DNA of 64,000 nucleotides from Blasia pusilla (GCA_050084515.1 CM114271.1:46686001-46750000); one strand, 5' to 3'. Counted from the first letter of the stretch, positions 6,947 to 54,705 are shown. Translations and numbers: made by a program. Notes: generated from the sequence alone by a model not told the origin.

Positions 6947-6948
6947 CG

Positions 6949-6960
6949 TGGTATCAGAGC
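6949..6960 (+). promoter_or_regulatory. Primer-binding site (tRNA-iMet)
   Basis: TGGTATCAGAGC 2 nt after the 5' LTR. Confidence 0.93.
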
Positions 6961-11611: not shown

Positions 11612-12291
11612 TACATGGTGAAGCAATGGACATAACTTGTGATCGGAAAGCTTGGGCCGATAACCCGTTGTAACTAGAAATGTTTAGTTGTTGCAATAAA
11701 GAAGACATGGATTTGGAGATTCGATGCTTGTATTGTAATTTTGAGTTTGGTTTGTGCAAGGCAATGAGTAGTTCTTCATATGCTCAGGATGTAAGTCAAG
11801 GAGACCAAACAATGAGTATTTGAGGTGAGAGCTTGTATTCAGATAAGGCATCTAGATCAGGACCAAGTGTTGAAGTACTAGCATTTGGTCTCGCCCTAAC
11901 GTCGGCGGGGCAGATGAGATTTTCTTGGGGTTTGTGGTGATCTCATTCATGTTGCATGGCTGAACTTAGTGACGCGCCTAGATGGAGTACAAGTGACCCA
12001 AAAGTAGTACGAGTTGGCTAGGTAGACATGCGGTTGTTTACAAATAGTGAGTGAAGTGTTAGGTTGCAGACTTAGTGAGCGTATTTTGATAATTAGATTA
12101 ATTCTGCAAAACTGATCTAGGCTGATCGAAAAGAAGAAGCTAATAAGTCTAAGTGTTGCAAGCGACAACCTAACACTTAAGCCAAAAGAGGAATTGCGGG
12201 TTAGCTACCAGAACGCGATTCAGTGTTAAGGGGTCGGCTTCCCAGAACTTAACATTAATAAGGTTTGCGTTGATGAGGACATCAACCTTCT

Positions 12292-12304
12292 AAGGAGGGG
12301 TGAG
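12292..12304 (+). promoter_or_regulatory. Polypurine tract
   Basis: AAGGAGGGGTGAG immediately before the 3' LTR. Confidence 0.85.
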
Positions 12305-16452: not shown

Positions 16453-19400
16453 ATGCCTCCACCCGCATTGGCCCCTCGCGAAGGGGCCCGTGGGTCATCT
16501 AGTCGGGATACGAAATGCCCTTGTTGTCTCGAATTCTTCACTCGTTCAGGAATTCGGAACCACTTAGCGGCTTAACATCGTGACTTTGATAGATTTGGAT
16601 GGGTGGTTCCTCCAGTCGATCATGGATGCTCACCGGTGCTTCATGCATCATCGCCCCCTCTCGAGGCATGGGAGTTGTTGAGGTCCCACCTTGGCAGCAT
16701 CACGGGTCTCTTTGAGACCCGTTTTCCTTGCCCGAGGTTGTTTCATAGGATCCCCCATGCCATTCGGGATGAGCTTCGCCAGACTTTCCTCCTTTCCCTA
16801 TCTAGGATCGCGCTTGATCCTATGGATGAGCTCTCGTGGTATCTACTACTTCTGCTTCCATGATGGTATCTTCACTATACCAGAGGAGGGAAGACTGGCC
16901 ATAGAGAGCATCTGGCCCGATTGCGGCGCTTTCGAGGAGGCGATTGGGAGTCTCTGCAGAGCGAGTTTGTGGCATATACAAGAGGTAGCACTTCACTTGG
17001 TTTCCTAGCGGACGATCTTGTAGCAACCAGATTGCGACGATGTAGGACACTTGGGCAAGCCAGGGAGTACTCGAAAGCGGCTCGTGCGCTCCTCCCTATG
17101 GATATGGCTCCTCCTTCCGCTGTTACCATCGACGCCTTCCGGAGGCTACATCCTCGTCCAGTGGTTGACATCCTAACATTTGTACGTGACTTCCATCGTG
17201 ACACGACCTTATGCCTAGACGTATCCCTTTTTGCATGGGCACTCAGGGGCGTTCCCCTAGGATAGCAGCTGGAGGGTTGTCCGGTATGATGTATGAACAC
17301 CTTCGTGATTGCTTTCCCCCCGAGGACTCTGCTAGCGGCTTTTCCGAGTTACTTCAGGTTGCTTCTCACCTAGCTCAGGGGAGAGTGCCAACAACAATAG
17401 CCTAGGTATTGGGGGCGGGGCGACTTTTGGCATTGTCGAAGGAGGGTGGAAGGATCCGTCCGATCGCCATAGGGGAGGTGCTCTTGCGATTGGTGAGTAG
17501 CACTATCGCTTTGCAATTCCGTGAGGCTTTCCAGTCACATCTGAGTCCGAACCAGTTCGGAGTTGCCACACCAGCCGGTTGTGAGGCGGTAGCCTTAGGT
17601 TTGAGGGCTTATTTAGATATACATCATGAGTGGATGGTTCTCCAAGTTGATGTGGAGAACGCCTTTAACTCAGTGTCTCAGGCAGCTATCTTCACGGAGC
17701 TGAGAGACGTAGGGGGTCCTATTGCGAGTCTGATTCCCTTCGTGCATGCTTTTTATGGGCCTCCCTCGGCTATCTATTTTCACCATGGTACGTTCGAGGA
17801 GGAGGTCACGGTCTTGGAGTCTGTTACCGGGACGCGTCAGGGTGATCCCTTGGGTGGTGCATTGTTTGCTTTGGCTCATTATCGAACGGTTCTTTCTACG
17901 GTGGAGGCTTTCCGGGGTTGCATTTTCCCTTCGTTGGCAGATGATACTCATATTGCTGGCCCTGGAGACCTGGTCGTTCTTGCATTTGAGCACTTTTCAA
18001 CACAATTGGCACGTGTCGGCCTCGCGGTGAAGGTGGGAAAGTGCAGGGCTTGGTCTTTATTAGACTTGTCAACGGATATTCATTTACCCGAAGATTTTTT
18101 GACACCTGTTGGAGGGCTTCGCGTCTTGGGAGTCCCACTCCGGAGCCATGACTTTGTATCGAGTTTTATAGCGGCGTCTCTTACCGAGGATCTTCTCCAT
18201 GTCGACGATCTCATGAGGATTGGTGACCCTCAAGTAGGTTATGGAATCCTCTCGTCATGTTTTGCTCGTAGACCTGGTTATCTGTGTAGAATCGAGTGGG
18301 CGTCTAGCCATATTTCTTCCTTGTATAGATCCTTTGATAGAAAGATCATGCAAATGTTTGGGGATCTTCTAGGACCCGGCTCATTAGAGTGGCCCGCGGG
18401 GGAGTTAGCTTGTAGACAGGCTTCTTGGCCGAGTGCCTTGGTTGAGTAGGTCTCATAGCGACCGAGTTAGTGGCATCTTCACCTGTTTTAGGGAGTTGGG
18501 CCACTGTAGCACCCCTCCTTTGCTCCCAATTTTTGGGCAGGGATAGATCGCTACTTTTACAGTACTTTTCCCAGGTTGAGGATGGTCTTTTCCCACTTCA
18601 GTCTTCATTCACAGCTTGTAGAGACTCCCTTCTTGTTGAGGCTAGAGCAGTTCTTCCCGCTTTCTCTTCCCTAGTTACCTCCGGACAGTCTGGGCTCCAA
18701 TCTTCTTTGATAGAAGCCCACTTTGATGTATTGTTTAGAGCTAGTATGTCGGACGGGAATATCCCCATGGAGGTTCGGGCCCGTATTCGCTCTTGCTCTG
18801 GAAAGGGGGCAGGCTCATGGATGGGGGCTCGTCCCCTCATCGTGGCTTTCCGCATCGCACCACTCACCTACACTACAACGATGCGGTTCCGACTGGGCTG
18901 CCCCAACCATTGGTGATTGGTTTGACACATTACGAGTGTCGCCAGAGTCTGGATCCACTTGGTGTGCATTTGGCACGATGTCCAGTCAGGGGTGAGAGGA
19001 TAGCCACTCACGATGCAGTGCGGGGTATTATGTTCTCTATTGCTCGGGAGAGTGGATTCCATGTACATAGAGAGAGGCACTACTCCATGCGGGATTCCCT
19101 CATCCGTGCTGATCTCTACATGACATGCGAGTCTGAGGTGGTGGTAGCAGATGTTGTAGTGACGGATCCTACGTGGGAGGCGGTGCGAGCCCAAGTGGTG
19201 GCACAAGGGAGATTGCTACAAGGAGCGGCGGCGGCCGCGGTCAAGAAGACCCACATTTATAGTCGACTTCATGACGGACATCGATTGATCCCCCTAGCCA
19301 TTGAGATGTACGGGGCTATGGGGAAGAGGTTTGACTTGTTCCTTATGGATTGCGCCCATCATCTCAAGTCGATAAATGGGTTTTCCTTAGCCACAGCGAT

Positions 19401-21268: not shown

Positions 21269-24200
21269 ATGGGTGTCGGAGCTGGAGCTGGAGAGAATGG
21301 GCAGCGTCAAGTGTATTGCATTGGCGCTATGGATACGAAGGCGGTTGATATTAGATATGTCGCAGATGCTCTTGGGTCGGCTCTATCGAAATTCTTGCCC
21401 GCTTCAAAGCACGTGAGTGCCGGTGTTGGCAGATCGTCCATCATCTTGCTGGATGTGTGTGGTTATCATGCTCGTTCTGAGAGAACATGAGTTAATTTTG
21501 AGGACAGTGTAGTACAAGAATGATGTCACGGAGACAGATCGTCTCTGAATTGGATCATCGCACGAGCTCGAGCTCAATTTCGAATCTTCCGATTTCCCAT
21601 ATTCGATGATCGAAGTCGCTGTCCTGTAATGGAATAATGAAAAAGAAATCTCCTTTTCTGACGTGGAAAAGGAAATTTATAAATCACAAATTCCACTGAA
21701 CCGTTGCTCCGTCTTGTAGCATGGAAGTTGATTCTGTGAGGGTGGAAGGATGCTTTGGTTTAGTCGGGACTAGTCTAGAGTTCTTCCTTAGTTCAACTCG
21801 ATAACTTGTGAGCTACTTTCTCAAATTGCATGGACAGTGTAGCGCATTTGGGTACCGAGTTGAGGTACCGGCTACAAGTTCTCTGGTACTCAGATTGCCA
21901 CCTTCCTGGCGCCTCTACATGCTGTCAGTATGTGCTGCAGCTACTCTTTAGTCTAAGAGATACCTTTAAAGATTAAAGTCTGATTATCCATTACATTCAC
22001 GAGAAGTCCTGCTACACGAAGGAATCGAGTGTGGATCCCCTGATAAGCAAAGTGGGCCTCAACAGAAGATACCGTCCAGTAGAGTCAGCTGGGTAGTCTC
22101 ATCGTTCTTGAATGCTTTGGTGCACGGGAGCTATGGTTCAACGTTTTAAGGTTCAACAGGTTCAAGCTGTGATTGTGAACAGTAGAAACCGTCCAGTGAA
22201 GTCAGCTGGGAAATCCCAGCGTCCTTGAATGCTTCGGTGCACGGGAACTATGGTCTTGACGTTTTAAGGTGGGTCGTGCAACAGGTTCAAGTTGTGATAG
22301 TGGACATCTCTACAGCAAAATCAAATCACAACAAACCAGAAGTGTTGTGCACGAAAAGAGAGGAAGTCCTGCGTCACCACCCTGACATCACGAAGAGATC
22401 GGTGGCTGCTATTCCCAGTGACAGGGGAGCGGCAGTGCAACTTATGAGTGAAGCCCTTGTTGAGTTCCTGAAATGTCGTCACTCGGAAGGATCTTTACTA
22501 GGTGCCATTGGCTTAGGAGGCTCTGGAGGGACTTCTATGCTTGCACCCGGTTTAAGAGCCATGCCATTGGGAGTTCCTAAAGTGTTGGTCTCCACTGTGG
22601 CCAGTGGAAATACAGCACCCTATCTTGAATCCTCAGACCTTAATCTAGTTCCTTCAGTGGTTGATGTGGCTGGCTTAAACAGTATTAGTCGAAAAATATT
22701 GGCGAATGCTGCTGCCTCTTTGGCCGGCATGGTGGCTTGCCAGGTCGAAAACGGATTGAAAGGGGAGGACACGGACAATGTTTCTGTTGGATTGACAATG
22801 TTCGGAGTAACTACATCTTGTGTGACTGCCGTGCAGAAGCAATTAGCAGCTCGTGGGTACGAGCCGATTGTGTTCCATGCCACTGGGAAGGGTATGTTGG
22901 TCGATTCTGTGTCTGAGTATTGAATTTCATTTGTTTCTGACAGATTTACGGTACATTTCTGGCCCAGACTCGTCCAGTAGAATGTTCACAGTGATCCGCC
23001 TGAACCATACTTAAATGACTCGCTGATAATCGATGTTCAATCTTTGAACAGGAGGGCAGGCTATGGAGGGTTTGGTGGAGCAAGGACTTTTACAGGTTTG
23101 TAGCACCCCTCTTCTCAGAAGTTGGTTCAGGTGAGAGCCTCAGATTTCTCGAGGAGCTATCCGAGGGCTGCTTGATGAACAGCTGCAGGATTAGTATGTT
23201 CATCAGTGTACTGACTGATTACAGAGTGAGAATGACTGAATGCTTGAAACCGTACTAAAAGGAGAGAATAGCAAGGAAGAAGGGAAAATAAGGCAGTCTT
23301 TACCAAACATCTACCCCAGCCCTGCAAACATAGAATCCTTTGTCCATGGATTAGTGAGGAGATGAGAAGGAAAGGAAGGCTTGCAATCAGATAATGACCA
23401 TCGAAAAAACCTTCACAGTCCAAGTTTAATGGGAATTATGTCTAGCAGAAGGCATAAGCTGGTAAATGTTTGGAAGAAGTAAAGGCGAATCAGGTTTCAC
23501 AACTGTCGTATTTTCATTTAAATCTTGTTATTGTTGGTCCTTATGTCATCCTGTCAGGGATGGTTCACCAAAAATGAGTCAGACCCTGTCTTGCCTCATC
23601 ATGTGGCTTATGGTCAGACAATCTGTTGTCATAGAGAATTCAAAGAGATGCTTTTGATTTCAGGGGGTGATTGACATCACAACGACAGAGGTCTGTGATT
23701 ATGTGGTGGGGGGCACAATGCCTTGCAGCAGCACTCGATTTGAGGCATCTTTGAACCGCCAAATCCCTCTGGTATTGAGTGTTGGTGCACTGGATATAGT
23801 TAACTTTGGAAGCTTGGATACTGTACCATCTGAATTTGCTGACCGACATCTTCATATTCATAACGAGCAGGTAAACCTGTTAGGCTAGGATTCCATTTCA
23901 TTCACATTAACCGTCTAATATCAATTCACTGAAGGAACAGTGTGCGTGGAATCTTTTCTTAATGTGATGCTAGTGTTGCATGTGTATTTTCTAGCCCCAC
24001 AGTGTAATACTTCGTCAATGAGGATCAAATTCTAGTCGCACAAACCTGAGAAACTTTAGCCTGTAAGACTAATTCATAGGAAATCAGGTGACTTTGATTG
24101 ATCTTTTCCAAACTGAAAATAATACTTTGCTGAGATCTATTTATTCTTATATTTTCGTCACTATTTCCAGGTAACTGCTATGCGGACCAACGTGGAAGAG

Positions 24201-27200
24201 AATCGGAAATTTGCACAATTCATTGCCCAACAACTGAATAAGTCAACTTCTCCTGTGCGTGTTTTACTGCCAGAGAGAGGAGTATCTGCATTGGATGCAC
24301 CAGGAATGCCGTTCTATGATCCTGAGGTGACGGGAGCTCTTGTACAAGAATTGGAACGGGCAATCCATCAAACTCCAGAGCGTAAAGTAAGATTCTTTGA
24401 CAGGGAATAGATATCTCCCTTCATCTGAGATTATGGGTGCTGTTTAGGGTTTAGTTGAAAGGCTTTGAATGATTCGTTTCTATGGACAAAGTAGCCTTAG
24501 AGCTTCTCCAATGCCTTTTAAATCAAGTGGAAAATTGAATAACAATCAAAATCAAGATGCTATCTCTCTCGTATCTTCAATGATCACCTGGGAATTTCTT
24601 TCTGAGAGCAAACCAGCATGGCCATCTCGCTGTTATTCAATGAAGATGTTATTATGTCAATGGGAAAGAAATCTTCTCGAGGTAGATTTCCAATACAGAA
24701 CGTAACTCATGTACTCCTGATATCTGGAGGTTATGTGGAAATTGAGCGACAGGTTCTTGACTCTTTTAAGGAGATATTGGTCAGAAGGCATCTGACAGAG
24801 ACTGTTGCAGGCTTCATATGTTAAGTCTCTCATGTAAAAGAACTTTGTACAAATGCCACTATAGTTTCTCTAATTTGTGTCCCCGGTTTAACTGGAAATG
24901 ACAGGTGATTAGACTGCCCTTCCATATAAATGATCCTGAGTTTGCTGAAGCACTCGTCTCAGAGTACTTGGATCTTACAAGTTCCTCAGTCACAAACCTG
25001 GAAGAAACAGTGTCTCAGAGTACATCTTCAGGTGCAAATCATAAAGCAGAGCAAGATTCTCACTCACCATCATGGGATACTGCATTTTACGATACCAGGT
25101 CCCAAATACAACATTTTCCAGGTGAGATTGTCTGCCTATGCGTCTGTCTTCTCTGTTGTAACAAAATTCTGGGCTGATCCCCAGAAACTCTGCACTGGTG
25201 CTGAATATGGTAAGTGCTCAGATTATATGAGAGGATCTCCCTTCCTCGTGTGGCCCTTTCTTCACTTTTATCCCTTTGACACTTGTACCCGACACTTGCA
25301 TTGTCCAACAAGGGCACAAAGTCTATGGCTACAAGGCTACAACAGGAAATGGAGCATGGTCTCTCCATTGCCATTTGCTCCAATAGCTCCTCTTATAATC
25401 ATTCTGCTAACTGATGCCTTCCGCAAGAACTATTGCATGATTGAGTAGTTTTTTTAGGGCTGTCAAACTATTGTGTACCATACGTCCCTAGATTAATGGA
25501 TATTTGGGAGTTCAAAAGAGCCTTTCCCAGACGGCAAATATTTTTATTCAAAAGAGGATTTCCCACATCTCAGGGCTCTGTATCTGGACTCATGATCAGA
25601 ACTAAGAAATTTGGCCACCTTTTTATTTTCGTGTCTGAGAATGAAGCAACTGATTTACTGCCCACAGGGAACCAGGAGGATTCTGAGACTTCAAAATTAC
25701 CATATTGGCCGTAGTTAGGAGTCTAAAATGTGGCCGATGAGTCAAATCCTGTCTCTGGATATGACGATCAGTGGATCACACGCTGGGAGTATTGGAAACA
25801 CTTATGTTCTTTTGGAAATATGGCCCAGGAACGATGAAAAGATATGAATCTACACTGGGAAAAATGCGGAGGCAGATCTCAGCGGGTATTCCAATCATTG
25901 GAGCTGGGGCAGGAACTGGCATATCAGCAAAGTTTGAAGAACAAGGAGGGGCAGATCTCATTGTTATCTATAACTCAGGACGCTTCCGAATGGCTGGAAG
26001 AGGATCTCTGGCTGGTCTCTTGCCCTTCAAAGATGCAAATGCAGTTGTGCTGGATATGGCAAACGAAGTCTTACCTGTGAGCAAAAAGCCCCTTTTCCCG
26101 TGAGCAATTACTGCGTTCAGGTGGATACATGTTCTTGAAGTCCTGGACATTGCTCATCTTGGATTTGTGTATGGCTTCCTGGGATTAAGGGACGTGCGGA
26201 TGCATCCTGCGCTATCTCAGGAAGATGGACTTGAAGGTTTGCCTAGTGACAAAAGGGCATAAGAAAAGTACTCCCTGGTTGAATTTGGTCCATTCTATTG
26301 ACATCATTGTCTCTTGGAGATTGGTGTAGGTGGTGAAAAACGTACCAGTTTTGGCAGGAGTGTGTGCTACGGATCCGTTCCGCCAGATAAGCCGTTTCTT
26401 ACGTGAACTTGAAAGCATCGGATTCTGCGGCGTGCAGAACTTTCCAACTGTTGGTCTATACGATGGAAATTTTCGTCAAAACCTTGAGGAAACTGGGATG
26501 GGCTATGGGTAGGGTGCCCCTTATCTGATTTCACCGAACTTGCATGTCGGCCTGGTGTTCTTATGCTTTTGGTTTAATTGAGACCACATTCCAACAGCTA
26601 TCGGAAGAACACTGACAAGACTTCCCAGCAATAGATACAACCGGAAGTTATGTTTGAAGTTTGAAGCTAATCAGGAAGTTTGAACTTTTGGTTCGTGTGG
26701 TAGCCTGGAGGTCGATATGATTCGGCAGGCGCATGCCATGGGTTTACTTACCACCCCATACGCATTCAACGTAGCAGAGGCCCGTGCTATGGCAGAGGCC
26801 GGTGCCGATATTGTGGTTGCCCATATGGGACTGACGACAGCCGGATCTATAGGAGCTCAAACGGCAGTCTCACTCGACAAGAGTGTAGAACTTGTGCAAG
26901 CCATTGCCGATTCTGCCAAAAAGATCAATCAACACGTCATTGTACTTTGCCATGGAGGTACTCCCTGTTTCGCCATCGAATTTGCAATGTGTGAAATTAC
27001 TTCAACATCGCTTGTAAACAATCATTTTGTTCAGAAACTACTATCGCAGTTTGATGCGGATACTGCGAATTAGCAGCATTTGTTAGGAACCTCCTACTTC
27101 TGACTGGGATAAGTTTTCACGTTTGGTAGGTCCGATCTCGGGACCTAAAGAAGCCGAGTACGTATTGCAACGTACACAAGGAGTGCATGGGTTCTACGGT

Positions 27201-27284: not shown

Positions 27285-29150
27285 GTTTAGGGATCGGATT
27301 CAGTGAACATTCCTTGTTCCATGAACTCAACACAGGATTGCAGAATGAATAAAAGGACCACTTGAGACAAGCTACAGGATTCAAAACATGACCTCTTCAT
27401 CGTAAGTGACTGGATCACTTAAGAGTTCACAATCCTAGCAAATTCCATTATAAATTCTTCCCGCGACTACTAGTTTTTACTCTCCTTCTGGCCGCTGGAC
27501 AGGTTGTCGAGTCGCTTTTCAAGGCTTTCGCAATAATTTGATCTTCCAGTTCAGGATACAAACTTATTCCCATCAGTTCCGTTAAATGTGTTGGCAGCAC
27601 ATTTATTGCTCGTCTGCACTCTTTCTCTACACTCTAATTGTGGTTCCTGCGTCAATTACACGGACGATTCACGAGGGGAAGTTGTACTGGTCGTAGATGT
27701 ATACCTTCTTTGTTGTCGGTGCGTTGTCCATGTTGCCCACCTGATATTGTGTTCCTCCCGGCAGCCAAAAGTCTCAAACTATGCAGGACCATGGGCAACA
27801 ATGGAATGGAAACTTGGTCTTATCTTCCGCAGAGCGAAGTTACCACGCTTGCAGTGGGATTCCTATCGTCGCCAATCTCAAATCCAATTGGAACTCACGA
27901 TCGTTACCAGTTTGACTGTCGACTGGATGCGAACATGTTTTCCTCTCCTCTCATCCCTTACACCGCTAACCGGCTAAACATCGTTTGGGACAGAACGCTC
28001 TTAAATGGCGTTGCTACGTAATCACTTGAAGAAAGTCTGGAGCGCTTACAGCCTGACATTCGTCACCTCGTGCGATATCTGTGACCATATATTCAACGAC
28101 ATCGCAGTTCTCACGCATGTGTGCCTAGGACTTTCATATCGTTTCGCGTTCTCCCCAAGGAGGCAAAGTCCACGGACCATGCTCTAAAAGAAGAGAAGAA
28201 AGCTCAGGAATCTAAACTCTTCGTCGCCGCTACCTTTAAAAGAGAAGAAATAGTCCACGTACATAGACTACTTGTCGTCTCGGTAGCATATAAGAGACGA
28301 AACCCACGAGAGCCGTGATAACCTCGCAAAAGAGACAGTCACGCACATCACCTTTCGTGGTAGAAAGAATTAAAGATAGAACTTAGAAAAGGCTTACTTG
28401 TCAATGCCGGACGGCAGATTACCTCCAAGCTCAAGAAAGGTATGCCACGCCATGAAGAACGTGAAAGTTCTGCAACGATTCGGGCCAGCAAAGGGCGAAA
28501 CACAGATTCTTTCGATTGCCTTTCGTTTCTCTGACACGATTCCTCCGATTCTGGCGCGCCTACTTTGACGCACATTTTGACAGCAGTCTCTATAGACTCT
28601 ATTCAAGAGATTCTTGGTTGATCACGGACAGTAGGCGGCGTCAGACAAGACGCGAGCAGATATGCCAGCGCAGCAGCTGGGCGTCATTGTCGGTATTTGA
28701 ATTTTGAAGTTGGAAGGAGGTCAGCCGAGAAGATTACTTTAATAGAAAAAATAAATAAACTGTGTTAACTGGCTGGTCGCCGAATGGAAGGCGGGTTTCC
28801 ATTAATTTTTTTAAAAAAATTAGGAAGTAGTGGAAGATTAATGACGTTGCATACAAATTAAAATAAAATTTGTCCGTGACTTGTGAAATATTTTTTATAT
28901 GATTATCATGTGTCAAACATATAGGTATTCGTAAATCAAGAAGGCATTTTCCCATAATAATATAGATTTCACAATAATTTTTTAGATTTATTTAGAAAAA
29001 GATGAATGAATAATTGTTATAGGTTGTCGAAATATAGTTTTCCAACGCGATCGTCTTTGAAATAAGCTTGCGTATATGATTTGTAACATCCATGATTAAG
29101 ATCTGGCATGCGATTGGAATGGAAGGATCGTACGGAAAAGCAAGGAAGTT

Positions 29151-29286
29151 TGTCGTGCGCATACATATCGCTACACAACATACATCGTTGGTCACATCTA
29201 CGCCACACAACACCGATCTTCCCCACACACGGGTCGATCCACACATGTACAAAAATCAACTCATACATATACATGGAGATCACACA
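29151..29286. repeat. Repeat A (136 bp), direct repeat of 29770-29905
   Basis: TGTCGTGCGCATACATATCGCTACAC...GGAGATCACACA versus TGTCATGCGCATACATATCGCTACAC...GGAGATCACACA. Confidence 0.95.
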
Positions 29287-29288
29287 AC

Positions 29289-29767
29289 AAAAATAAAGAG
29301 TAGTAAAAATGACACACCCGGCCTAAACTCCACTCCTCAATCTACACCGGCATATCGAGCCTCGTCCACCCTGTGTTATCAAGGAATCCGGATGCTAGCA
29401 CCCTAGTCCTATCTCACACACATACAAGGGAGGTGCTCCAACGACCCAACATGAGAAAGATGGCTTAGGAAAGCCATCTTCCTCTCTTATATAGGGTTGG
29501 GAAGAGCCAAAAGGCTTTTCCCCTAAAAATAGCCCTCCCCTTGATAACCTGCGCGCACAGGTTACCAAGGGCGGGTGACCTGGTCAACAAGTCATCTGGC
29601 TGTAAAAGACCTCAACATGAAAGTTGTCAGAAACGACGTTCCTGACGCAATGGACCTATTCTCAATCTCATCCGACACTGTGGGACAAAGTTACAATGAA
29701 GATAGTCCGCTGGCTTCTACGCCCTATCCACGATAGATCTCGGCCTATCGGTTACTCAGATGTGACA
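29289..29767. repeat. Repeat B (~479 bp), direct repeat of 37948-38426
   Basis: AAAAATAAAGAGTAGT...TCAGATGTGACA in both copies. This copy lacks the first TGT. Confidence 0.95.
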
Positions 29768-29769
29768 GC

Positions 29770-29905
29770 TGTCATGCGCATACATATCGCTACACAACAT
29801 ACATCGCTGATCACATCTACACCATACAACACCGATCTTCCCCACACACGGGTCGATCCACACATGTACAAAAATCAACTTATACATATACATGGAGATC
29901 ACACA
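29770..29905. repeat. Repeat A', directly downstream (minus strand) of the PPT AGGGGGGCGAT
   Basis: Second copy of A. Minus strand reads ...CTAGGGGGGCGAT|TGTGTGATC. Confidence 0.93.
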
Positions 29906-29983
29906 ATCGCCCCCCTAGTTGGCACTTGGATCCCCCCAACTCCAGATAGAAAATATCACATCTCTCTGACATGACCTACTACC

Positions 29984-30145
29984 CTATACACATCTCGAAC
30001 ACATCCATCGTCCCGTGGGAACCACATCAAGAGGGGGGGTCAGACATGACATATGCCACCCTCGAGAACAACCATCACATACCAACATGGTGGCTGCACC
30101 CCTCGCAGATCCGCACAACATACACCTCAAGCCTGCATGTACCAT
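29984..30145 (-). pseudogene. PHD finger at the C-terminus of integrase
   Basis: CMLCGSARGAATMLVCDGCSRGWHMSCLTPPLDVVPTGRWMCSRC is a complete C4-H-C3 PHD with the conserved W before the last Cys pair. Confidence 0.93.
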
Positions 30146-30325
30146 TGCCAAGCTCGGATCCACCGTCCCATCTACGTTCGGAAGATGACATGGCGCACAA
30201 TTGCGCACATGATCCTTCCAAACCATACAATCCCGTTCCTCCAACATGAGGACTCCGGTTGGTAATACCTCGCGCACACATAGGATCGTGCGCCCCGCAG
30301 TGACATCTAGCGTCGTGGGTACCGC

Positions 30326-33056
30326 CTACTGTAAATACACGTAATCTCCACGATGAAACCTCCTAATCCCTGGACGATAACCTCCTCCACGAATGGTCGC
30401 GTACCTCAATGTATCTCTATGCGAGGCAGTAGCTAAGTTCTCAAAGGCCATAGGCATAACTCTACGAAAAACTTTTGCCCTCTGAGAACATGCTTGTACC
30501 CACACATCTGGATCATCAAGATCTAACACCTCCGCCATGTCACGTCGAATCGCTGTAGGTAAATCTGGCTCTCTCCCAAAGAGCAAAACGTACGGTGAAA
30601 ATGACGACAAGGATGCCTGTCGACTAAAGCGATAACGCATAGCCAACCATAGCAACTGTAGATCCCACTCCCTCAACTGTCCCCGCCGCAAGCCATACTT
30701 GCGCAATCCTCTCTTCATCGTCTGTACCACTCTCTCCGCCAACCCATCCGCCTCAGGATGATCTCTGGACGTGGTGCGGTGATCTATCAGCGCCTTATCA
30801 CATAAGGCCTGAAACTCTCCCCTGAACTCGGTACCCTGGTCAGTCAACACCTCCGCCGGTGCACCAAAGTGACTAAGCACACGATCTAGAAACGCATAAG
30901 TTGTTCCCTTGCTCACCTTGTCTGGTAGTGCCACCAACTCTATCCACTTGGAGAAATGCTCCACCATGACCAACACGTACCTATGATGACGTCCCGTCAA
31001 TGGCAAAGGTCCCGCAAAGTCTAAACTCCACCGATAACCTAAACCTATAATCGGCAAAGGATGTAACTGCGGAGTGGGAGCATTGAAGGATGCTCGACTC
31101 TGTCACATACCATACATCCGCCACAAACCGCTGTACCCCAATATGCATGCCGCGCCACCAAAAGATTGAACCCGAGTAAGTGTAAACGCTTTACTCCGAA
31201 ATGTCCCAACTCCTCATGGGCATGTCGTACTACACGTGCTTGCTGGGAAGGATGAGGTACCACTCGTATCTTACCATCTCCCCATACCCGCAAAATGTGA
31301 GTCTCCTCCCCCCGAACCTCTTGGCTCTCTCAGAGGATCCGATCCGCTCCCTAGCACTCATGACTCGCAATGACGCCGGTGCGCAAGAACTCCACAACCT
31401 CCATGTCGTCATGGATATCACGACCACCACCGCCTCCTCACTAACCTCCGGATCCAAAGACTCATCATCCAACCCCACCACCGAGTCATCACCGCGGGTG
31501 ACCGCCATAGTCAACCAACAAAGATAGGCAGATGCATGCCAACCGGGCACCATCTCCTCATCACTCTCTCCGTGCCATCGAGCTCTTGTGTCGTCTCTCT
31601 GACTCGGACATGGGTTACGACTCAACCCATCCGCATCCTAGTTCAGCCGACCTAGCCTATGAACCACCTCCAAACTCATACTCATGTAGTAATAGAGCCC
31701 ACCTCGCAAGCTTTCCTGTAAGCTTGTCGGACTCCATCAACCACCTCAACGGCTGATGATCAGTGATAAGTGTGAAAGGGTTGCCGAATAAATAGCACCT
31801 GAAATGTGCCACGGCCCACAATGCAGCCAAGCACTCTCCCTTGTAGGAGCTGTACTTTGCCTCTGCAATGTTGTTCGATCCGCTCGCGTAAGCCACAACG
31901 AACTCCCTCTCCTCATCATCCCTCTGAGTAAGCACTGCTCCTAGACCCAACATGCTCCAATCCGTATGTAACTGGAATGGGCGACCCCTAACCGGTCTTT
32001 GTAAAATGGGTGAGGACGTCAACCTGTCCTTGAGCTCCTGAAATGCTCGCTCTTGATCATCTCCCCACAACCAAACCTAATCAAGTCTCGTCAACAAGGT
32101 CAAAGACTTTGCGATCGCACTAAAACCCTTGACATACCGTCGATAGAAGTTTGCCAGTCCAAGAAATGCTCGAACTCGACTCACATCTGTAGGGCGTGGA
32201 ATCTACGCAATAGCCTCTACCTTCGTCTGCTGAACGCCTAACTCACTCGGGTATATGGTGTGTCCCAAGTACTCAATCTGCTCCTGAAAGAATCTGCACT
32301 TGGCTGGATGTAACTTCAGTCCATGTAACTGCGATCTCCGAAACACCTCCTCCAAGTGTCGCTCATGCTCCTCAACTGTGGAACTGAAGATAAGAATATC
32401 ATCTATGTAACATTGTACAAAATCCAAGCCAGCCAGTATCCTATCCATCACTCTCTAAAACTCTGCAGGCACGTTCTTCAACCCAAATGGTAAGAACCAC
32501 CACTGATACAAGAAATCTCTCCCGAATCGATCTATCCCCCAGAATGTTGTCTTCTCCGTGTCCTCCAACCTGATAGGAAGCTGATGATAGCCAAAGATGG
32601 AGATCTAAAAAGCATCAAGATCTTTGCATGCCCTACCGCATCAAAGATCTCCTCAGGAGTAGGCATGGCGTACCGATCTGACCTCGTCTGTCGGTTGATA
32701 GGACGGTAATCTCCACACATCCGCCTATCCGTCCAATTGCCATACATATCCTTCTTTGCCGGCATGACTGTGGCAGATGCATACTCCCCATGTGATAACT
32801 CCACAAGTCGTGCCTCCAACAAGTCCTGACTCCTGCTCTAAATCAAGGCTCGCTCCATATCAGAATACCTGTAGGGTCGACATTTAAAGATCGGCGTATC
32901 ACTAGCCAACTCAATCCGTATCCCGGGACCCTTCTGCGTACCCAAGTCTCTCATACTGAAGGCAAAACAACTGACATGCCCTCTCAGAAACCTATGAACT
33001 CGCCGTCGCTCTCCTCCTATCAACTTGAGACCTATCACAGGCTCCCAAGTCTCCAT
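30326..33056 (-). pseudogene. RT, RNase H and integrase of the MTase-Gypsy (fragmented)
   Basis: RT: YASATVMPAKKD..RMCGDYRPIN, YIDD. RH: LHTDWS..GLGAVL, ECLA..WAVAHFRCYL, TDHQPL. IN: HAHEELGHFG..CMVC, SLDFAGP, LTDQGTEF, GLAERVVQ. Confidence 0.93.
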
Positions 33057-33369
33057 CGTGACCTCACTCGGAGAGGACGCAACCTCCGCCTTTGGTTGCT
33101 ATGTAGCAACCCTAGCCACCTCCGCAACAACCACTCCACTCTGACCTCCTACACCATGCTCCACATCCTAAAAATGAACATGTGCTACTCTAGCCGCCTT
33201 CGCACTCTCTGCTTGAACGACGTCCCAGGAAGTCCATGGGTGCCTATCTCTCCTCGTCTCGCCCCCAGCCAATGCCTATACAGACCCTATAGGCAATGGT
33301 CCAACTCATGGATGTGATGGCATGGATGACACTCGCATCCGTCTGTGCTCAGCCATACCTAGGCTGACT

Positions 33370-34320
33370 ATCCATGTGAGACAGTTGAGGTCCATCGCCT
33401 GCCCCAACACCTGTCTCCGGGATGCCTCAGTCATCCCTGGCACCGCCGTAGTACCGGTAGTGAACCCCATGGCGCGCTCGCGCTCATCTGCTGTAGGCTC
33501 CTCCAATGCTCTGGTCACCTCATCCCAAATCATGCCTAGCCCTCCCTGAGGAAAGGCACGGGATGCTGGGAAGCTCACCAACGTAGGTAAGGCTGCCCTC
33601 AACTCCCCCACCCTATTGGCCATGGCCAATGGTGGTCTATCATCCCGTGTCACCACCTGAGATCGATGCCCTAAGCCGAAAATAGCATCCACTGTGAGAT
33701 GTGGTGCTCTTTGGACTCCACCGTATGCTTGACGTGGAGTGACATATCATGACGTATCATGTTCGTCCACCACAGTCGTGGACGATGGGCACGTGACCCA
33801 ACTCTCGCTGCATCTAACAACACAGCAGGTCCCAACTAGGACCTCACCTGATATACACTCGTCATCACACGTGCACGAGTGTCCATTGGAGAACATGCCG
33901 GCATGTTCTCCAAAATGTACGTTGGAGAACAAATGTGACTCTCCTGCAAGTGTCGTACTACTTACAGCATCTCCCAAAACATCCCTGACCTCGGATTCTG
34001 CAATCCAAATCCTCGGCCAGCTGATGAATGATCCTGACATGGCCATCCAACAATCACCAAATGAATGGTGCCAACTCTATGCATATCCTGTGCCCCCACC
34101 AAAGAGATGTCGGCGGGTAGCGTATGCTGATATCCCCGTACTGCAGATACCAGCAACAACTCAGGATACCTTTGGACCAATCTCGCCACGTGACGTAATG
34201 ATACTCGCCGCGCGGTCTCATCTCTCTCCACATAAAGGTACTGATGCACCCGTATGCCCGCCTGCAATAGTGCAACCAATCCGGTGCTAATCCCTTCAAA
34301 GAGATCTAACACCCTAACAC
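33370..34320 (-). pseudogene. C5 cytosine DNA methyltransferase domain, DNMT3-like (disrupted)
   Basis: Motifs in linear order: I RVLDLFEGISTG; II YVERD; IV GWPCQD; VI YILENM (~33900-33920); VIII LDAARVGSRAHRPRLWWTN (~33760-33815); IX ERERAMGF..GTT; X RRQVLGQAM. Confidence 0.9.
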
Positions 34321-34701
34321 CCTCCTCTGGGCATTGCCACACAACAGGTGTGGTATCCAGTGGGGTCAACCTCTCCACTCCAAGAGCCCGATCGCCATGT
34401 GACTCTTGCTGCTCTGGGATAAAAACATGACTCCACGCCTGCCTCACGAGGTCGTCGGCACTCCTCTGTAGCTCTCGAGTCGTACCCCACAATGGTGAAG
34501 AGGCCTCGCCAACATGGGAAGAGACACCCGCCATGGCTTGTCTCTCCGTGGGACTATCCGCTACTGGGACATCCTCCGCATGTGCGTTCTCCTCCAACTA
34601 CTCTCCTGGCCAACTAACACTACTTGTGAAAGTTGCCAACGTGGTCACAGACTCGCCTCGTGATCGACCACCTCGTCCCGCAAACTGCACGGGTAACTGA
34701 C

Positions 34702-35118
34702 TCATCTGGCCAGGATGGCAGTTAGGTGACGGCCAGGATGGACATCACCTAACCGCCATCCTGGCCGATAAGCAACGGTCTCCTCCCAGAAGTCAATGAT
34801 GAATCCTAGGGGATATAACACTGTACTCCCCACCAACACATCGTACGACTCAACTGGTGTCTTAATCGCACGTGTGCGCACCATAGCACTATCCGTCACA
34901 TGCTCTGGCTAGACTCTGACAACAATCTCCTGTCGAGTCATATACTGAGTGGGTGATACGCCCCCAATCGAGGTCTGTATCTGGAAGGGACAAGGCTCAA
35001 TGTCGGCCTTCCGTAACCCCAACGCTAAACACGCCGCCTTCCCTAACATCAAGGGTTGCGCTCCCGAATCAAGTAGGACATGCTGCGGGTGATATACTGT
35101 CACCGTCGGACTAACCAA
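34702..35118 (-). pseudogene. Retroviral-type aspartic protease
   Basis: VLLDSGAQPLMLG ... YDVLVG, with one in-frame stop at 34909-34911. Confidence 0.8.
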
Positions 35119-35985
35119 GCAAAATACTCAAGCTCGGTTATCCAGTAACACTACTCCAGGTGTCACCACTGCTCGTTCTATGGCCAGTCGAGCTGGCATA
35201 TCTACCAACTTCGCCGCCGCCGCATGCCATGACTCTGTGGGGAACGTCCCAAGCACCGGCTCTGAGGGCAAGTCCACCACCTTCTCAACTACCTTTGAAC
35301 AAGAAGCAATCATCTCTCCACGCTCACACAACATGGCGGCCAACCGGAATACCTCAGCTGGTCCAACCCCCAACGTCGCCAACTCTATGGCGGAAAATAG
35401 CGGAGTCTGACTCACTCTGGTGGCCACCTCCAACACTATGGTCGACACTGACTCCACTCGAGCCGGCATAGGAGTTGTCACTCCAACTCCTCGTGACGTC
35501 GACGTGGAGTGTGCCGAATCAGAGGCACTTTGCTGGTCGTCGAGGCACCATCGATGGTGTGTGTAGTGCCTCCGACAATGTGAACGACTGTGGAACCCTG
35601 GCCTGCCGCCCATTGGTCCCCTCTGGTGGATCAATCTCAACTCCACCTCTCGATGGCTCGGTGCCTCTCGTAGCACCCCGAGTCACCACTGCAGCTGCCT
35701 CAACCTGGGCTACACTACACATAAATCCCATACTGGCGAGATCCTCACCCGGGTCAGGGTAAGAGGTAGAAGTTGGAGTCACACTAGCTGCTCGCAGTTC
35801 TGTGCCTTCCCTAAGCTGCATCATCGTCATGGCAGCAATCCTTGGCTCCAGCCGATCGATGCATGAGAGAAGTGCCGGTTCTGGTGCTCCTGCTCCATCT
35901 CCTCTGGCTGGTGGTGGTCCTCTACCACCACGTCCAGGAAAAACTCCCCGACCTCCTCTAGGACGACCGCCCCCAGGCCCTCGGC

Positions 35986-37065
35986 CTACCTCTGGACGTG
36001 CCCCTCAGCAAAGGTCAAAACATCTATCCCTAGTGTGACCATATATGTGGCAATGGTCACATTGGTGCTCTGGTGGGGCCATCCTCTGTGGCTCCTGAGA
36101 AATCGGAGGCACTGGTGGCCCTCTCCCATGCTGAGGGCAGTCTCTCTGCCTATGGGCCCCTCCACACGTCCAACAAGACCACATCGGTCCCTGCTGGGCA
36201 ACATATGTAGGTACGGTCGTTGCCTCATAGGCTCACGGTACCCGCCCCGCTCTCTAGGCACACATTGGCCCGCTCCCATGGTATCGGTGCTTCTTGTGGG
36301 TGGGCACTGTGGGGTCACCGTCGCTCGTGGACCCGTCAACTCTCGAGAAAATCCAGCGGTCACTACCTGCTCCTCACTCATGTTGAGCTCAATATGCTCA
36401 GACAACTCAAAGACCACCTTCAATGTGGGCTTCACTGTGTGAATCAACACCACATCTCGGACTCTCCTCCGTAGTTCTCGGTCCAGAACCCCGTACCAAT
36501 ACTGGACCGGCTGTGCCTCAGTCACTCCAAACGTAGCAATGATCAACCTCCTCATGCGCGTGAATGCCTCTCTCCGACTCTCACCCGATCGTCGCTGAAA
36601 ATCCTGTAGACTCTTTAGCTTGTCGGTGCGTACGCCCTGGTAGCTCTTCCCCAACTGTCGGAAGAACTCCACTATGGGGCTAAAGCTGGGTGGCCCTCTA
36701 CCACCAGAGGTCTCTGCCACATCGCCTGTCTCACTGCCCTCCTCTCCATCTAGTCTCCGGGCTGATGGTGTGGGTCTCTCTCCTCTCACAATCCCATCAT
36801 ATGCCTCGCGACCACTAGTGGACAGATACCCTGGAGCCCAATACATCCTCCAAGCATCGATCTCTAATGAATATAGTGATCGAAACTCCATGTAGTCATC
36901 CATCGGAGGACCCTCCAAGTGCTGGAACAACCCCTTCCATGCCATGAAAGGGTTGAACCGTGTCGGGGTCCGTATCTCCTGGAAGTCGCACCATGTGTCG
37001 AACTCCTGGATAAAATCATCTAAGTCGATGGTGCCCACTACACCATGTTGTCCATCTCCTGCCAA
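35986..37065 (-). pseudogene. Gag with two zinc knuckles in a shifted frame
   Basis: 359-aa ORF at the 5' end of the element. An alternative frame gives CWTCGGAHRQRDC (~36140-36175) and CDHCHIYGHTRDRC (~36020-36061). Confidence 0.8.
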
Positions 37066-37947
37066 GTACTACTGTCTCTGTGTGTGATCTCGTCACCAGA
37101 CCCTGTGTCCAATGATGACGAGCCAGCCACAGATGGATGTCAAGGTAGCTCCTCACTGGTAACCCCTCGGTATCTCACTCCACTCCGTGTCACACCACTA
37201 CTACTGCTCGCACTACCCTGTTCTTCCAAACCCTAGAAGAACGCCGTGATGACAAACCCTGTCTCACCCGCTCAAGCACTCAGACTCACCGAGAGTCTCC
37301 CACACGCCTCACTAGCTCACCTATGCTAACATCAATCCCATGATGACATACCCGGCCTCACGCACGCTCAACACTCGGGCTCACCATGAGCCTCCCAACT
37401 GACTCACCTAACCTAGCGACACTCTCTTGGGTCATACACATGACCCCTACTTGGCAACCGCCGTATATCCACCAACATGCTACAGACGAAAAGAATCTAC
37501 ACTCGTCACCATCACTGCACCCACCTAGCACCAGCTACTACCCGATACCGAGCACTCTCAATCACACACGACAAGTGCGAGAAAAGGGATGCGCGGAGGG
37601 GGGGAGGGGGCGCGCCGTCACCGCCCGCCGTCTGTCCGCGACCGCTGACCTAAACGCCCGTTAGCGCCCCCGGCGGCTGCAAGCCCTAACTCTCTTTTCT
37701 TCTCTGTCTCGACACCCACACTCGCGTACACCCGACGCTCCACCGCACATTACACTCGGCTGCTGTCCCGCGTCAATCCGTACCAGCAAAATCTGAGAAA
37801 AATGGACAGCGCTTCCGCCCACGGCCTTCCAAACAGAAAAATGACAAACACCCGCAACACACGCGTCTCCAAGGGCTCTTGACCAAGGCAACTCACTTGC
37901 CTACCTGCAAACAAGGAATTCCCACCAGCCCCCTGACATCTTTCTCA

Positions 37948-38426
37948 TGTAAAAATAAAGAGTAGTAAAAATGGCACACCCGGCCTAAAACTCCACTCCT
38001 CAATCTACATCTGCATATCGAGCCTCGTCCACCCTGTGCTATCAAGGAATCCGGACGCTAGCACCCTAGTCCTATCTCACACACATACAAGGGAGGTGCT
38101 CCAACGGCCCAACATGAGAAAGATGGCTTAGGAAAGCCATCTTCCTCTCTTATATAGGGTTGGGAAGAGCCAAAAGGCTCTTCCCCTAAAAATAGCCCTC
38201 CCCTTGGTAACCTACGCGCACAGGTTGACCTGGTCAACCTGGTCAACAAGTCACCCGGCTGTAAAAGACCTCAACATGAAAGTTGTCAGAAACAACGTTC
38301 CTGACACAATGGACCTATCCTCAACCTCATCCGACACTGTGGGACAAAGTTACACTCAAGATAGTCCGCTTGCTCCTACGCCCTATCCACGATAGATCTC
38401 GGCCTATCGATTACTCAGATGTGACA
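37948..38426. repeat. Repeat B' (5' terminal repeat) with minus-strand TATA box at 38150-38156
   Basis: TGTAAAAATAAAG...GATGTGACA. Minus strand reads TATATAA..25 nt..ATCTTTCTCA. Confidence 0.93.
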
Positions 38427-38953
38427 AGTTCAACGACGCTTCTTCTAATTCGTCCTACTTAGGGCATGTCATGGGGAGCCTTTGGCATCTCCCATCCAAT
38501 TCCTTGGGATGTTCTGTGGAAAATGCCCGTCGTGTCCAACAGTGTATACAGCGAGATACGCACACTATGTGTTGCATAATCGTACATATAGATTGGTGAA
38601 GAACTCGCGTTGATCCACAGAATGCATGCCAACCATTTGTAGGATATCGTAGCAAATACATATGGACCATCCCAGAGTTGATTGTCTCCTCCCGGTACAC
38701 ACAAGTGCGGAAGAGTTCACGTCTAGCTAGGTATGAGAGGCGCATGTTTGTCATCTTGGGAGTCATTTTTCATGTTTGCAATTAGTTTATGAGTCCACTT
38801 CATACAAGTCATTTGCAAAATATTTGCGAGCCTAATGCGAGTTGACACTAGTTTGCGACTGTTCCTAATTTTTCATGTAAGTTGCAAGTCTTGTGTATTT
38901 GCGAGTCCAAAGAGACGCAAAAGACTTGACACATCACATTGAGATTTGCAAGT

Positions 38954-51701: not shown

Positions 51702-54700
51702 ATGGAGGAAACCGCAGGCATGCGAGAGCGTGCAGTGGCGAAGGCGGATTCGAAGGACTCCGAATACACTCTCGATGGATCAGTGGACATGAAGGGGAAT
51801 CCTTCAGTGCGAGCCAAAAGTGGGGGTTGGGGGGCATGTCCGTTCATTTTGGGTTAGTACTCTGCTTTCCTTCCTCCCTCCGCTCATTCGTCAAGAAGGA
51901 CATGCTGAGCAGAACATGCCCAGGAGTTCGTTTCATTCTCTCTGGTTACGTGATGACAGGAAACGAGATGTGCGAAAGACTCGCCTTCTACGGTATCGCC
52001 ACCAACTTGGTGGTGTATTTGACCTCAGAATTACACCAAGGGACCGCGCAAGCATCCAACAATGTTACCAACTGGTCAGGCACTTGTTACATCACAACAA
52101 TCATTGGCGGATTCGTCGCTGACGCGTATCTGGGGAGGTACTGGACAATTGCAATATTTTCGGCCGTCTACTTTCTTGTAAGTCTCAACACTTCCGTGTC
52201 CAACTGCGTTTCGTCACTTTCTTGGTGTCACTGACCTCTGTCTATGCGGTTTCCTCGAAGCGAAAACGCCAAACTCTAGGCCTGCCAATTTCCGAAGGTG
52301 ATGTTTTCTGGTCGTTCGGTCTGGAGTTCCGAGTTGTCGTAACTCGAGTCGAGACGACGACGTTTTACACCGCGAATCTAGGACGGCGTGAAGCTATACT
52401 CTTCTTTCTGGCAGCACACTATCTTTGCGGAAACCGTGTGCCAACCTCGAATTTCTTCGAAGAAGAGAGTGTTGTCTGAGTCCTGAGAAGTCGAAGCGGA
52501 GGGTGTTTGAGCCATTTAAGAGCTTTCAGTCAATGTTTGGTCAATGTAACAGACAGTAAGACCCATGTTTCGTGGATACCCGCACGCCGATGACACGGTT
52601 TTACACGAATCTTCTCTTTCTGGATAAGAATCTTCATCTCACGAAATGAAATTGTCGCATTTTGAGGTGTTGATGACTACAAGCTGAACGGCTCTCTTGA
52701 ACACTGAGACTGCAAAATCTTCTGGCGATGTTCTCCATCGACGATGCGTTTTCTTGTCGTCGAAGTCCTGCTTGAACACTGATCATGATCTTGACACTCG
52801 CAGGGGATGATTTTGTTGACCCTCTCCGCATCGTTACCCTCGTATCGGCCAGCCCCTTGCGTGCCTCCCCACAGTAATTCGTGCCCTCCAGCCTCAGAGA
52901 GTTCGCTTGTGCTTTTCTACTTCTCGTTGTATTTGGTGGCTTTGGGGACCGGAGGAATCAAACCCTGCGTCTCGTCTTTCGGAGCCGACCAATTCGATGA
53001 AAACCATGAGAAAGAGAACATTCGGAAAGCCTCTTTCTTCAACTGGTTCTACTTCTCCATCAACATCGGGGCCGTCGTTGCCTCCAGCGTGCTTGTGTAT
53101 GTTCAGACGAACCTTAGCTGGGGCATAGGCTTTGGTATTCCTGCGGGAGCCATGGGAATTGCCATCGTCAGTTTTTTTCTGGGGACCCCTAGATATCGCC
53201 ATCAAAGACCTGGGGGCAGTCCTCTCACTCGCATTGCCCAAGTGATGGTTGCATCACTCCGGAAGTGGAATGTGGAAGTCCCAGCCGAAGAGTCACAACT
53301 CCATGAAGTGCACGACAGGGAGTCTGCAATTCAGGGCAGTCGCAAAATGAGGCACACCAACAAGTTCAGGCAAGCGACCGTTCCATTCCTTCTCTGTCCA
53401 ATTCCTGTCCAGCGTAAACATGTCTTCTTTCTCACGTCGTCTGTTCTTTTCATGGTTCTTGGGAGAGCTTTGTGATTTTCGGTTCCTCGCCATCAATTTA
53501 AAGGTGAGCGCAATCCTTCCATTCCAGCTCCAAGGAACAGGAATCTTGCAATTCGCTTTCCCCCTTCGCTCTTTGCTGAAGGTAAATGTTCGATATCCGC
53601 ATTCGACTGGAATGCTGCGAGGAAGTCTGTACATCCGCTTCATCTGCAACAAGCGAGTGAGCGGAGGTGATCTGGAAGAAAGGATTTGCGGTTCTGTGGA
53701 AGGCAGAATGTATCACGCAGGCGATGTAATAGAGGAGACAGGTGAAGGTAGTATGCTTATTGAGCTTACGATATAGCCCTTGTCCCCGGGGGTCTTCCTT
53801 GCAGGTTTCTCGATAAGGCGGCAACAGCGAGCCCGACGGACATGCAGGGATACAAAGATCAGAATGGCGTGAGCCCTTGGAGGCTTGTCACTGTCACGCA
53901 GGTCGAGGAGGTGAAACTCGTTGCGCGGCTTATGCCAATATGGGCGTCGAGCATAGTGTTTTCGACTGTATACAGTCAGATGTCCACGCTGTTTGTCGTT
54001 CAGGGTGAGAGGATGAATAGTTCTATGGGACCAAACTTCAACATTCCGGCTGCTTCTTTAAGCATCTTCGACACGCTCAGTGTGATCTTTTGGGTCCCGG
54101 TCTACGACCGTTTACTGATTCCTTTGGTGCGGAGATACACGGGCCATCCTCGAGGGTTTTCACAGCTTCAGCGCATGGGAATCGGATTAGCGATCTCCGT
54201 CTTGGCGATGGTTGCTGCGGGGGTCGTGGAGATTGAGCGGCTGCGAGTAGCGAAGAACAAGAACTTGCTGAATGACGCAGATCATGAAGTGCCGCTGAGC
54301 ATTTTTTGGCAGATTCCTCAATATTTCCTCATTGGTTGCGCGGAAGTGTTCACATTTGTTGGTCAGATAGAATTTTTCTACGATCAAGCTCCCGATGCCA
54401 TGCGTAGTCTTATGAGTGCCATGAATTTAGTGACGGTTGCTCTTGGAAACTATTTGAGCACTTTGTTGGTCACCATCATGACGCACATCACAAGACGAGG
54501 AGGTAGTCCAGGTTGGATCCCCGACAACATCAACGTTGGCCACATCGATTACTTCTTCTTCCTCCTTGCCGTTCTCAGTGTGCTCAATTTGATCTACTAC
54601 TTACTTGTTGCAGTCTGGTACCGATACAAGGCAGTGGAGCCTGTCAACGAAGAAGATGACTTGCAGCTGTCTTCTCAAAATCTTCAGCAGCTACACAGCC

Positions 54701-54705
54701 ATTGA
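51702..54705 (+). CDS. NRT1/PTR family (NPF, likely NPF8-type) peptide/nitrate transporter, exons 51702-51852, 51960-52177, 52804-53369, 53805-54705
   Basis: [30 protein letters not shown] (ExxER), [88 protein letters not shown]. Confidence 0.95.

Follow-up and report, generated by a model that had tools for sequence, protein, structure and literature searches.

How does a Gypsy-type retrotransposon start reverse transcription when no TGG follows its 5' repeat? The question was raised by an element of about 9.3 kb, equipped with a C5 DNA methylase, on the minus strand of the window, as we call the whole 64-kb stretch of DNA that was analysed. An earlier note on this DNA had proposed that the element primes itself in the manner of Tf1, for which the primer is the first 11 nt of its own RNA. 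The proposal is supported here by a 14-nt complement at the end of the repeat, by the spacing from the promoter, and by compensatory changes in a relative. In what follows, r denotes the complementary segment inside the repeat, and P the one that directly follows it.

A methylase-bearing Gypsy element with split repeats

The repeat search of the whole 64-kb window gave the layout A1-internal-B1-GC-A2-B2 for this element; with its direct repeats split in this way (A1-internal-B1-A2-B2), it is not a plain LTR element. The 5' repeat described earlier is present, but it belongs to a split repeat, of which it forms the A half alone. All of the following features lie on the minus strand. One copy of the target-site duplication AACT (38427..38430) stands immediately upstream of A1 (37951..38426, 476 nt), which starts with TGTCACA and holds both the promoter and r. 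At the other end of the internal region, a polypurine-like tract, AGGGGGGCGA (29907..29916), has a G run, 3 nt beyond which the B repeat starts. B1 (29770..29906, 137 nt) ends in ...TGACA, and A2 (29289..29767, 479 nt) contains a second copy of r at 29449-29462. The palindrome TGACAGCTGTCA (29763..29774), at the B1|GC|A2 junction, places the two integrated-end sequences head to head. A single base (G, 29288) separates the end of A2 from B2 (29151..29287), which ends in ...CGACA and has the second AACT (29147..29150) immediately downstream. The bounds of the insertion are, in short, TGTCACA... at the start of A1 and ...CGACA at the end of B2, with the 4-bp duplication on each side.

When the two A copies were compared, 449 matches, 26 mismatches, and 5 gap columns were counted, and the B copies were identical at 131 of 137 positions. 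The homology between A1 and A2 ends at ...TTTATTTTT, its last base being 37951. Where A2 meets B2, the base that precedes P is followed by one G and then by the sequence that starts 3 nt past the G run, and it is here that minus- and plus-strand DNA would start; the G at 29288 is an extra base outside what the model proposed below accounts for. [quoted passage not shown] An LTR consisting of A+B (TGTCA...TGACA) was considered and discarded, as no purine tract precedes A2, no PBS follows B, and the observed topology is not produced. The search of all 64 kb found no further copies of the element, only its own A and B repeats and one unrelated second Gypsy.

The leader and a degenerate coding region (29987..37936), with many stops and frameshifts, are colinear with a nearly intact relative, L002 (contig CADCWO010000201.1, 9285 nt), whose integrase is 71% identical. 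The window copy, with its frames interrupted by numerous stops and shifts, is dead. A domain scan of 23 of the 38 open segments of at least 50 aa between A1 and B1 gave Pfam matches, in this order, to a C5 DNA methylase (PF00145, 33965-34597), RT (32206-32454), RNase H (31660-32076), the integrase core (rve, 30329-31102), and, after the integrase, a PHD finger (PF00628, 29987-30325). Integrase_H2C2 was also matched alongside rve, in ORF pieces of the window, in L002, or in both. The methyltransferase that had been ascribed to the Gypsy element was thus recovered next to RT-RNase H-IN, as a C5 DNA methylase assigned at the level of the Pfam family. No chromodomain was reported in the window, in L002, or in the five relatives scanned, all of which have the PHD finger (PF00628) after the integrase, and no match to the tyrosine recombinase family PF00589 was obtained in the 23 window ORF pieces or in three ORFs of L002.

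Among the matches listed, the integrase piece was closest to liverwort proteins, from Calypogeia fissa (79-91%) and Riccia sorocarpa (85%), followed by Sphagnum, Marchantia, Klebsormidium, Closterium, and chlorophyte proteins; those of Klebsormidium nitens had 51-56% identity. Many of these proteins contain a PHD finger and some a methylase domain; domain orders were determined for five of them. The element belongs to the streptophyte Gypsy-DNMT lineage as found in K. nitens, where KnitGypsy-Dnmt3 has been described as having Gypsy domains together with DIRS-like repeats in the order A-coding-B-A-B (PMC5890265, de Mendoza et al. 2018); in a preprint of 2026 the lineage is called 'Gypsy-DNMT3'. 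A DNMT domain in a Gypsy polyprotein (RT-RNase H-IN) is common to KnitGypsy-Dnmt3 and the window element, and the A-coding-B-A-B repeats were found both in the latter and in a second relative, L001. They differ in that the closest named relatives of the window element are the liverwort proteins, at 79-91% among the matches listed. In the main text of de Mendoza et al. (2018), the term 'primer binding' has no occurrences and no mode of priming is given.

The methylase does not occupy a constant place in the family. It is upstream of RT in the window element, in L002, and in the protein P0017, and between RNase H and integrase in the proteins P0057 and P0093 and in the locus L007, which suggests more than one capture or an internal move.

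Complementarity between r and P

Located at 38112..38125 and reading CATCTTTCTCATGT, r is the candidate self-primer and would make up the first 13-14 nt of the transcript, while P, the candidate PBS (37937..37950), reads ACATGAGAAAGATG and adjoins the last base of the A1/A2 homology. The exact complementarity reported in the earlier note was reproduced in full, with 38125..38112 matching 37950..37937 on the minus strand at 14 of 14 nt. The 14-mer occurs exactly three times in the window: as r in A1, as r in A2 (29462..29449), and as the complement of P. The repeat end, previously drawn as TACA|TGAG, is real, but the boundary was placed 3 nt off; ACA is part of the PBS, since the homology between A1 and A2 ends at 37951. 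As claimed, there is no TGG at the boundary, which reads ACATGAG. The nearest TGG (37927..37925) cannot mark the start of minus-strand DNA, because it is 24 nt past the end of the repeat. That start would instead coincide with the boundary of P, because that is the point at which A2 ceases to match A1.

How often such a match arises by chance was estimated from the 30 nt after the repeat, in which the longest complement to any part of the repeat was sought at offsets 0-5 and compared with 20,000 mononucleotide shuffles of the repeat. The observed length was 14 nt at offset 0; none of the 20,000 shuffles reached this value, the maximum being 12. The tRNA-primed Gypsy of the same window served as a control and, in the same test, showed no complement of at least 6 nt to its own LTR. 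This second element (5919-13335, plus strand) is better preserved, with LTRs of about 1.03 kb (about 5919-6946 and 12305-13335; TGTCGC...GGACA), domains for gag, zinc knuckle, protease, RT, RNase H, and zinc-binding integrase, and an apparent 4-bp duplication, ATAC, of the same length as the AACT of the methylase element. Its PBS, TGGTATCAGAGC, lies 2 nt after the 5' LTR and is presumably the classic plant initiator-tRNA-Met site; the purine tract AAGGAGGGGTGA precedes the 3' LTR. In the methylase element, the intact 14/14 pairing is not by itself evidence of selection, because the copy has decayed, its ORFs being broken and its A1 and A2 differing by 26 mismatches and 5 gap columns.

The position of r with respect to the promoter agrees with what had been claimed for it. 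The distance from the first T of the TATA box TATATAA (38150..38156) downstream to the start of r is 31 nt, compared with the earlier figure of about 32. Judged from the TATA spacing, the transcription start site (TSS) would be at 38125 or 38124, and r would then be the 5' end of the RNA; the complementarity of P to a segment 31 nt past the TATA box is itself observed. The hairpin that the earlier note had seen over the predicted TSS, at 38120-38143, exists but is longer, with 14 bp at 38116..38147 (38147..38134 paired with 38129..38116, -22.4 kcal/mol). The 5' arm is similar in sequence to the PBS, and nt 1-10 of r lie in the 3' arm. With the TSS at r, the upstream arm would belong to U3 and remain untranscribed, so that the hairpin could form only in the U3-containing 3' copy of the RNA or in DNA. 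In the minimum free energy (MFE) fold of the RNA 38125..37925, nt 1-10 of r are paired with P (-72.1 kcal/mol, z = -2.94), so that 10 of the 14 possible r/P pairs are used; r and P are 175 nt apart.

Covariation in relatives

Relatives were sought by scanning bacterial and archaeal genome contigs with an alignment of the integrase, made from the window piece and 18 of the 120 matches listed. Nine loci with the same eukaryotic element family were found on MAG contigs. The contigs of seven of them (L001-L007) are filed under cyanobacterial, Mollicutes, Halorubrum, Halanaerobiaceae, and Cyanobium records, yet they carry eukaryotic Gypsy-PHD/DNMT retrotransposons, and those MAG bins therefore contain eukaryotic contamination. 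The remaining two (L008 and L009) are remote, at 29-30%, and were left out of the comparison of loci.

The most informative relative was L002. The ends of its contig are identical over 127 nt, and the assembly therefore represents a single 9158-nt unit, either collapsed or circular. From the gag-like region through PHD, this unit is colinear with the window element, and its domain order is the same, the methylase being upstream of RT, RNase H, IN, and PHD. It is nearly intact, with one in-frame stop only, between the methylase and RT parts. This stop (3489-3494), which may be read through, splits gag-protease-methylase from RT-RNase H-IN-PHD. The leader of 1.2 kb includes a run of about 28 A (8150-8177), which is perhaps an inserted retroposed sequence.

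Downstream of PHD, L002 presents G7-CAC, B, ...CGACA GC TGTCAC..., A, and then P, which reads ACTTGACAAAGAT. Inside A is r, ATCTTTGTCAAGT, the exact 13-nt complement of P, and the two form the sole inverted pair of at least 11 nt at a spacing of 60-600 nt in the 9285 nt. Compared with the window, r differs at position 8 (C>G) and position 12 (T>A), and both changes are complemented by changes in P. As a result, 13 of the 14 r/P pairs are kept, two of them by a compensatory double change, and the first pair is lost. These pair states were read from the direct comparison of the window with L002; MAFFT puts the 2-nt length difference inside P. The spacing from r to P is 177 nt, against 175 nt in the window, a TATA-like TATAG is found 29-30 nt upstream of r, the boundary of the repeat has no TGG, and the MFE fold again pairs r with P (z = -3.04). 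From reading of the sequence, a 12-bp hairpin, CTTGACTTGACA/TGTCAAGTCAAG, also surrounds r (about 7226-7253), with an upstream arm that copies part of P; as this arm, too, precedes the predicted TSS, formation of the hairpin would again be confined to the 3' copy of the RNA or to DNA.

Outside these segments, the two elements have little left in common. MAFFT was unable to align U3, the loop, or the leader, and the observed similarities were close to those of shuffled sequences (U3, 0.428 vs 0.438; loop, 0.516 vs 0.498; leader, 0.457 vs 0.453). Because these regions are at the level of the shuffles while the changes in r and P are compensated, r and P stand out as a conserved pair that co-varies within an LTR that has diverged around them. 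Relatives in which the PBS covaries with the 5' end had been named as a check on the proposal, and such covariation was thus found in the one relative (1/1) with both sites and a recognisable family LTR.

The remaining loci inform on the geometry of the repeats. L001, about 90% identical to L002 over B-A, has no 5' end and is laid out as G7-CAC, B1, ...CGACA GC TGTCAC..., A2, B2, and flank, with the same B start and order as the window; the succession of G7+CAC and then B is common to L001 and L002. L005 and L006 end before the repeats. In L003, L004, and L007 (42-52% IN identity), repeat copies are absent and there is no cross-similarity with which to fix the end of A. L003 has a 12-nt inverted pair with no upstream TATA box, at chance level and with the A end not fixed, and an 11-bp pair with two G:U downstream of a TATA-like box, also at chance level, as are the pairs of 9-11 nt in L004 and L007.

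Since short inverted repeats are frequent, as these last pairs of 9-11 nt illustrate, the r/P match could be a chance inverted repeat as well, a reading to which we attach practically no credence, given that 0 of 20,000 shuffles reach 14 nt and that two compensatory changes occur in an otherwise unalignable LTR. More serious is the case of a host small RNA (a tRNA half, a tRNA fragment, or other) that shares the sequence of r, binds P, and acts as the primer. Priming by tRNA halves exists in plant copia lineages (PMC6317226), and the core of r is conserved between the two hosts, as a conserved host RNA would be. The 64-kb window and the loci L001-L007 contain no tRNA genes with which P might be compared. 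P and the LTR copy of r, however, change together between the window and L002, a covariation with the LTR that a host primer would not cause; r is at TATA +30/31 in both elements; and the boundary is without TGG. Moreover, the Rfam scan of 37600-38500 returned no family above chance, only FsrA, which scored 22.8 bits where the gathering threshold is 80. A host primer is, on this evidence, quite improbable.

The stem formed by r and P might also be a structural RNA element, with a function in packaging, dimerisation, translation control, or cyclisation of the leader, while priming follows another route. Long-range stems are common in the 5' leaders of retroelements, the MFE z-scores of about -3 are those of a structured leader, and the covariation as such shows pairing, not priming. 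We nevertheless consider this explanation unlikely, because P begins exactly where the A1/A2 match ends, which is where minus-strand DNA must begin, and because no other candidate PBS adjoins the boundary, the nearest TGG being 24 nt further on, outside the repeat.

Self-priming is the best reading of these observations, because P is at the end of the repeat with no TGG, r is at the predicted TSS, and the pairing is kept by compensation. From the sequence comparisons, therefore, P is probably the minus-strand PBS, with reverse transcription primed by the 5' end of the element's own RNA.

Proposed replication pathway and comparison with known elements

In the pathway that we propose, transcription would start about 31-32 nt past the TATA box in A1, at 38125 or 38124, and the first 13-14 nt of the RNA (r) would fold back onto P over a loop of about 160 nt. 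The RNase H of the element would then cut past the paired segment, as in Tf1, leaving a primer of presumably 13-14 nt, and the freed 3' OH would be extended through A1, generating a strong-stop DNA that would be transferred to the A2 copy. Plus-strand synthesis would begin at the G-run tract upstream of B1, and reverse transcription would yield a repeat unit B-GC-A. The genomic copy would accordingly correspond to a product with two B-GC-A units that has undergone circular permutation, the opening being at the internal palindrome. Owing to the split repeats, this pathway may differ from the textbook one.

The permutation itself bears on a further alternative, in which the complementarity serves a DIRS-like cDNA step, as a fold-back or as a splint for the formation of a circle, and not RNA self-priming. 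DIRS elements use internal complementary regions, and the split direct repeats (A1-internal-B1-A2-B2) resemble those of DIRS, Ngaro, and PAT elements, fitting the order A-internal-B-A-B. Members of these groups code for a tyrosine recombinase and are not known to generate target duplications, whereas the window element, in whose scanned ORF pieces no tyrosine recombinase was detected, has a DDE integrase, a 4-bp duplication, and ends of the TG..CA type. RNA self-priming would, in addition, predict just the places that r and P occupy, the former at the predicted TSS and the latter at the end of the repeat. A DIRS-like step thus appears very improbable. REM1, considered as an element of the same kind, was rejected, as it is described with a truncated and reversed integrase.

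How, then, could a self-primed element with a DDE integrase arrive at permuted repeats? The palindrome offers a possible answer. Its core, GACAGCTGTC, was found in all five loci that reach the region (L001, L002, L003, L004, and L007), downstream of IN/PHD and 55-240 nt past the G run. We tentatively suggest, as a possibility short of an even chance, that the ends of reverse transcription are uncoupled from those used by the integrase, and that the DDE integrase opens a circle or head-to-tail junction at the internal palindrome (...GACA GC TGTC...). Self-primed reverse transcription would first build B-GC-A, with the PBS at one limit and the G-run tract at the other. The substrate for integration would be a circle containing the junction, or a head-to-tail form, equivalent to a 2-LTR circle and cut at the palindrome, and its opening there would give A-internal-B-A-B copies flanked by 4-bp duplications. 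It may also be that 3'-end signals, missing after the 5' A copy, are provided by the downstream B copy. If this is true, circular DNA would be an obligatory intermediate for a retrotransposon with a DDE integrase.

There is a precedent for part of this scheme, as integrases of the retroviral type are reported to cut the palindromic LTR-LTR junction of 2-LTR circles in foamy virus (PMC1180852) and HIV-1 (PMC1905944). The likeness lies in the palindrome, which has the form ...CA nn TG... and results from two att ends in head-to-head arrangement (PMC1180852, PMC1905944). The difference is that the viral junction exists only in circles, while here it is a permanent internal feature of each copy, located inside the unit of reverse transcription.

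Self-priming itself is already known, and what is unusual is its combination with the permuted architecture. It has been demonstrated for Tf1 of Schizosaccharomyces pombe and proposed for Tj1 of S. japonicus and other elements, from fungi to vertebrates (PMC4600332). As described there, the 5' repeat of Tf1 and Tj1 is directly followed by a PBS that can pair with the first nucleotides of the mRNA of the element itself, with no tRNA involved, as would be the case for the window element, in which the start of the mRNA is predicted. The latter differs from both in having an integrase with a PHD finger and not a chromodomain, a C5 DNA methylase in the polyprotein, and, its repeats being split, a repeat end beside the PBS that differs from the integrated ends. 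It also has a complementary stretch of 13-14 nt, where 11 nt are quoted for Tf1. With a PHD finger and no reported chromodomain, the element is set apart by domain content from the Tf1/sushi (Tcn1) clade of chromoviruses.

In plants, self-priming has been predicted for Tcn1-clade chromoviruses (mosses and club-mosses) and for the TAR copia elements, amounting to 12% of all elements surveyed (PMC6317226, Neumann et al. 2019). Like the window element, these are LTR retrotransposons of green plants with no tRNA PBS and are predicted self-primers (PMC6317226). The main text of that study mentions neither the PHD finger nor methyltransferase nor Marchantia, and in the literature searched, taking PMC6317226 and PMC5890265 as their main texts, we found no description of self-priming in the Gypsy-DNMT/PHD lineage. 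Self-priming, shown experimentally mainly in elements of fission yeast and predicted in a few plant clades, would therefore extend to a different Gypsy lineage, marked by a PHD finger and a DNA methylase and ranging from green algae to liverworts, the support being comparative and coming from two elements. With the PBS and PPT boundaries away from the integrated ends, a structural oddity noted in 2018 becomes a concrete and testable model of replication, for which the nearly intact L002 is a candidate test system.

Outside the methylase element, 94 ORFs reach at least 90 aa, and in the 44 of them that were scanned against Pfam the second Gypsy, a non-LTR RT, and host genes were identified. The non-LTR RT is an ORF of 347 aa (17406-18446, plus strand) with a match to RVT_1 (E = 7.9e-18) and no LTRs nearby, and is probably a fragment of a non-LTR retrotransposon. 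The host genes, which appear in exon-like pieces on the plus strand, comprise a UPF0261 + PEP-hydrolase-like protein (22186-27070) and a transporter of the PTR2/POT family (52795-54702).
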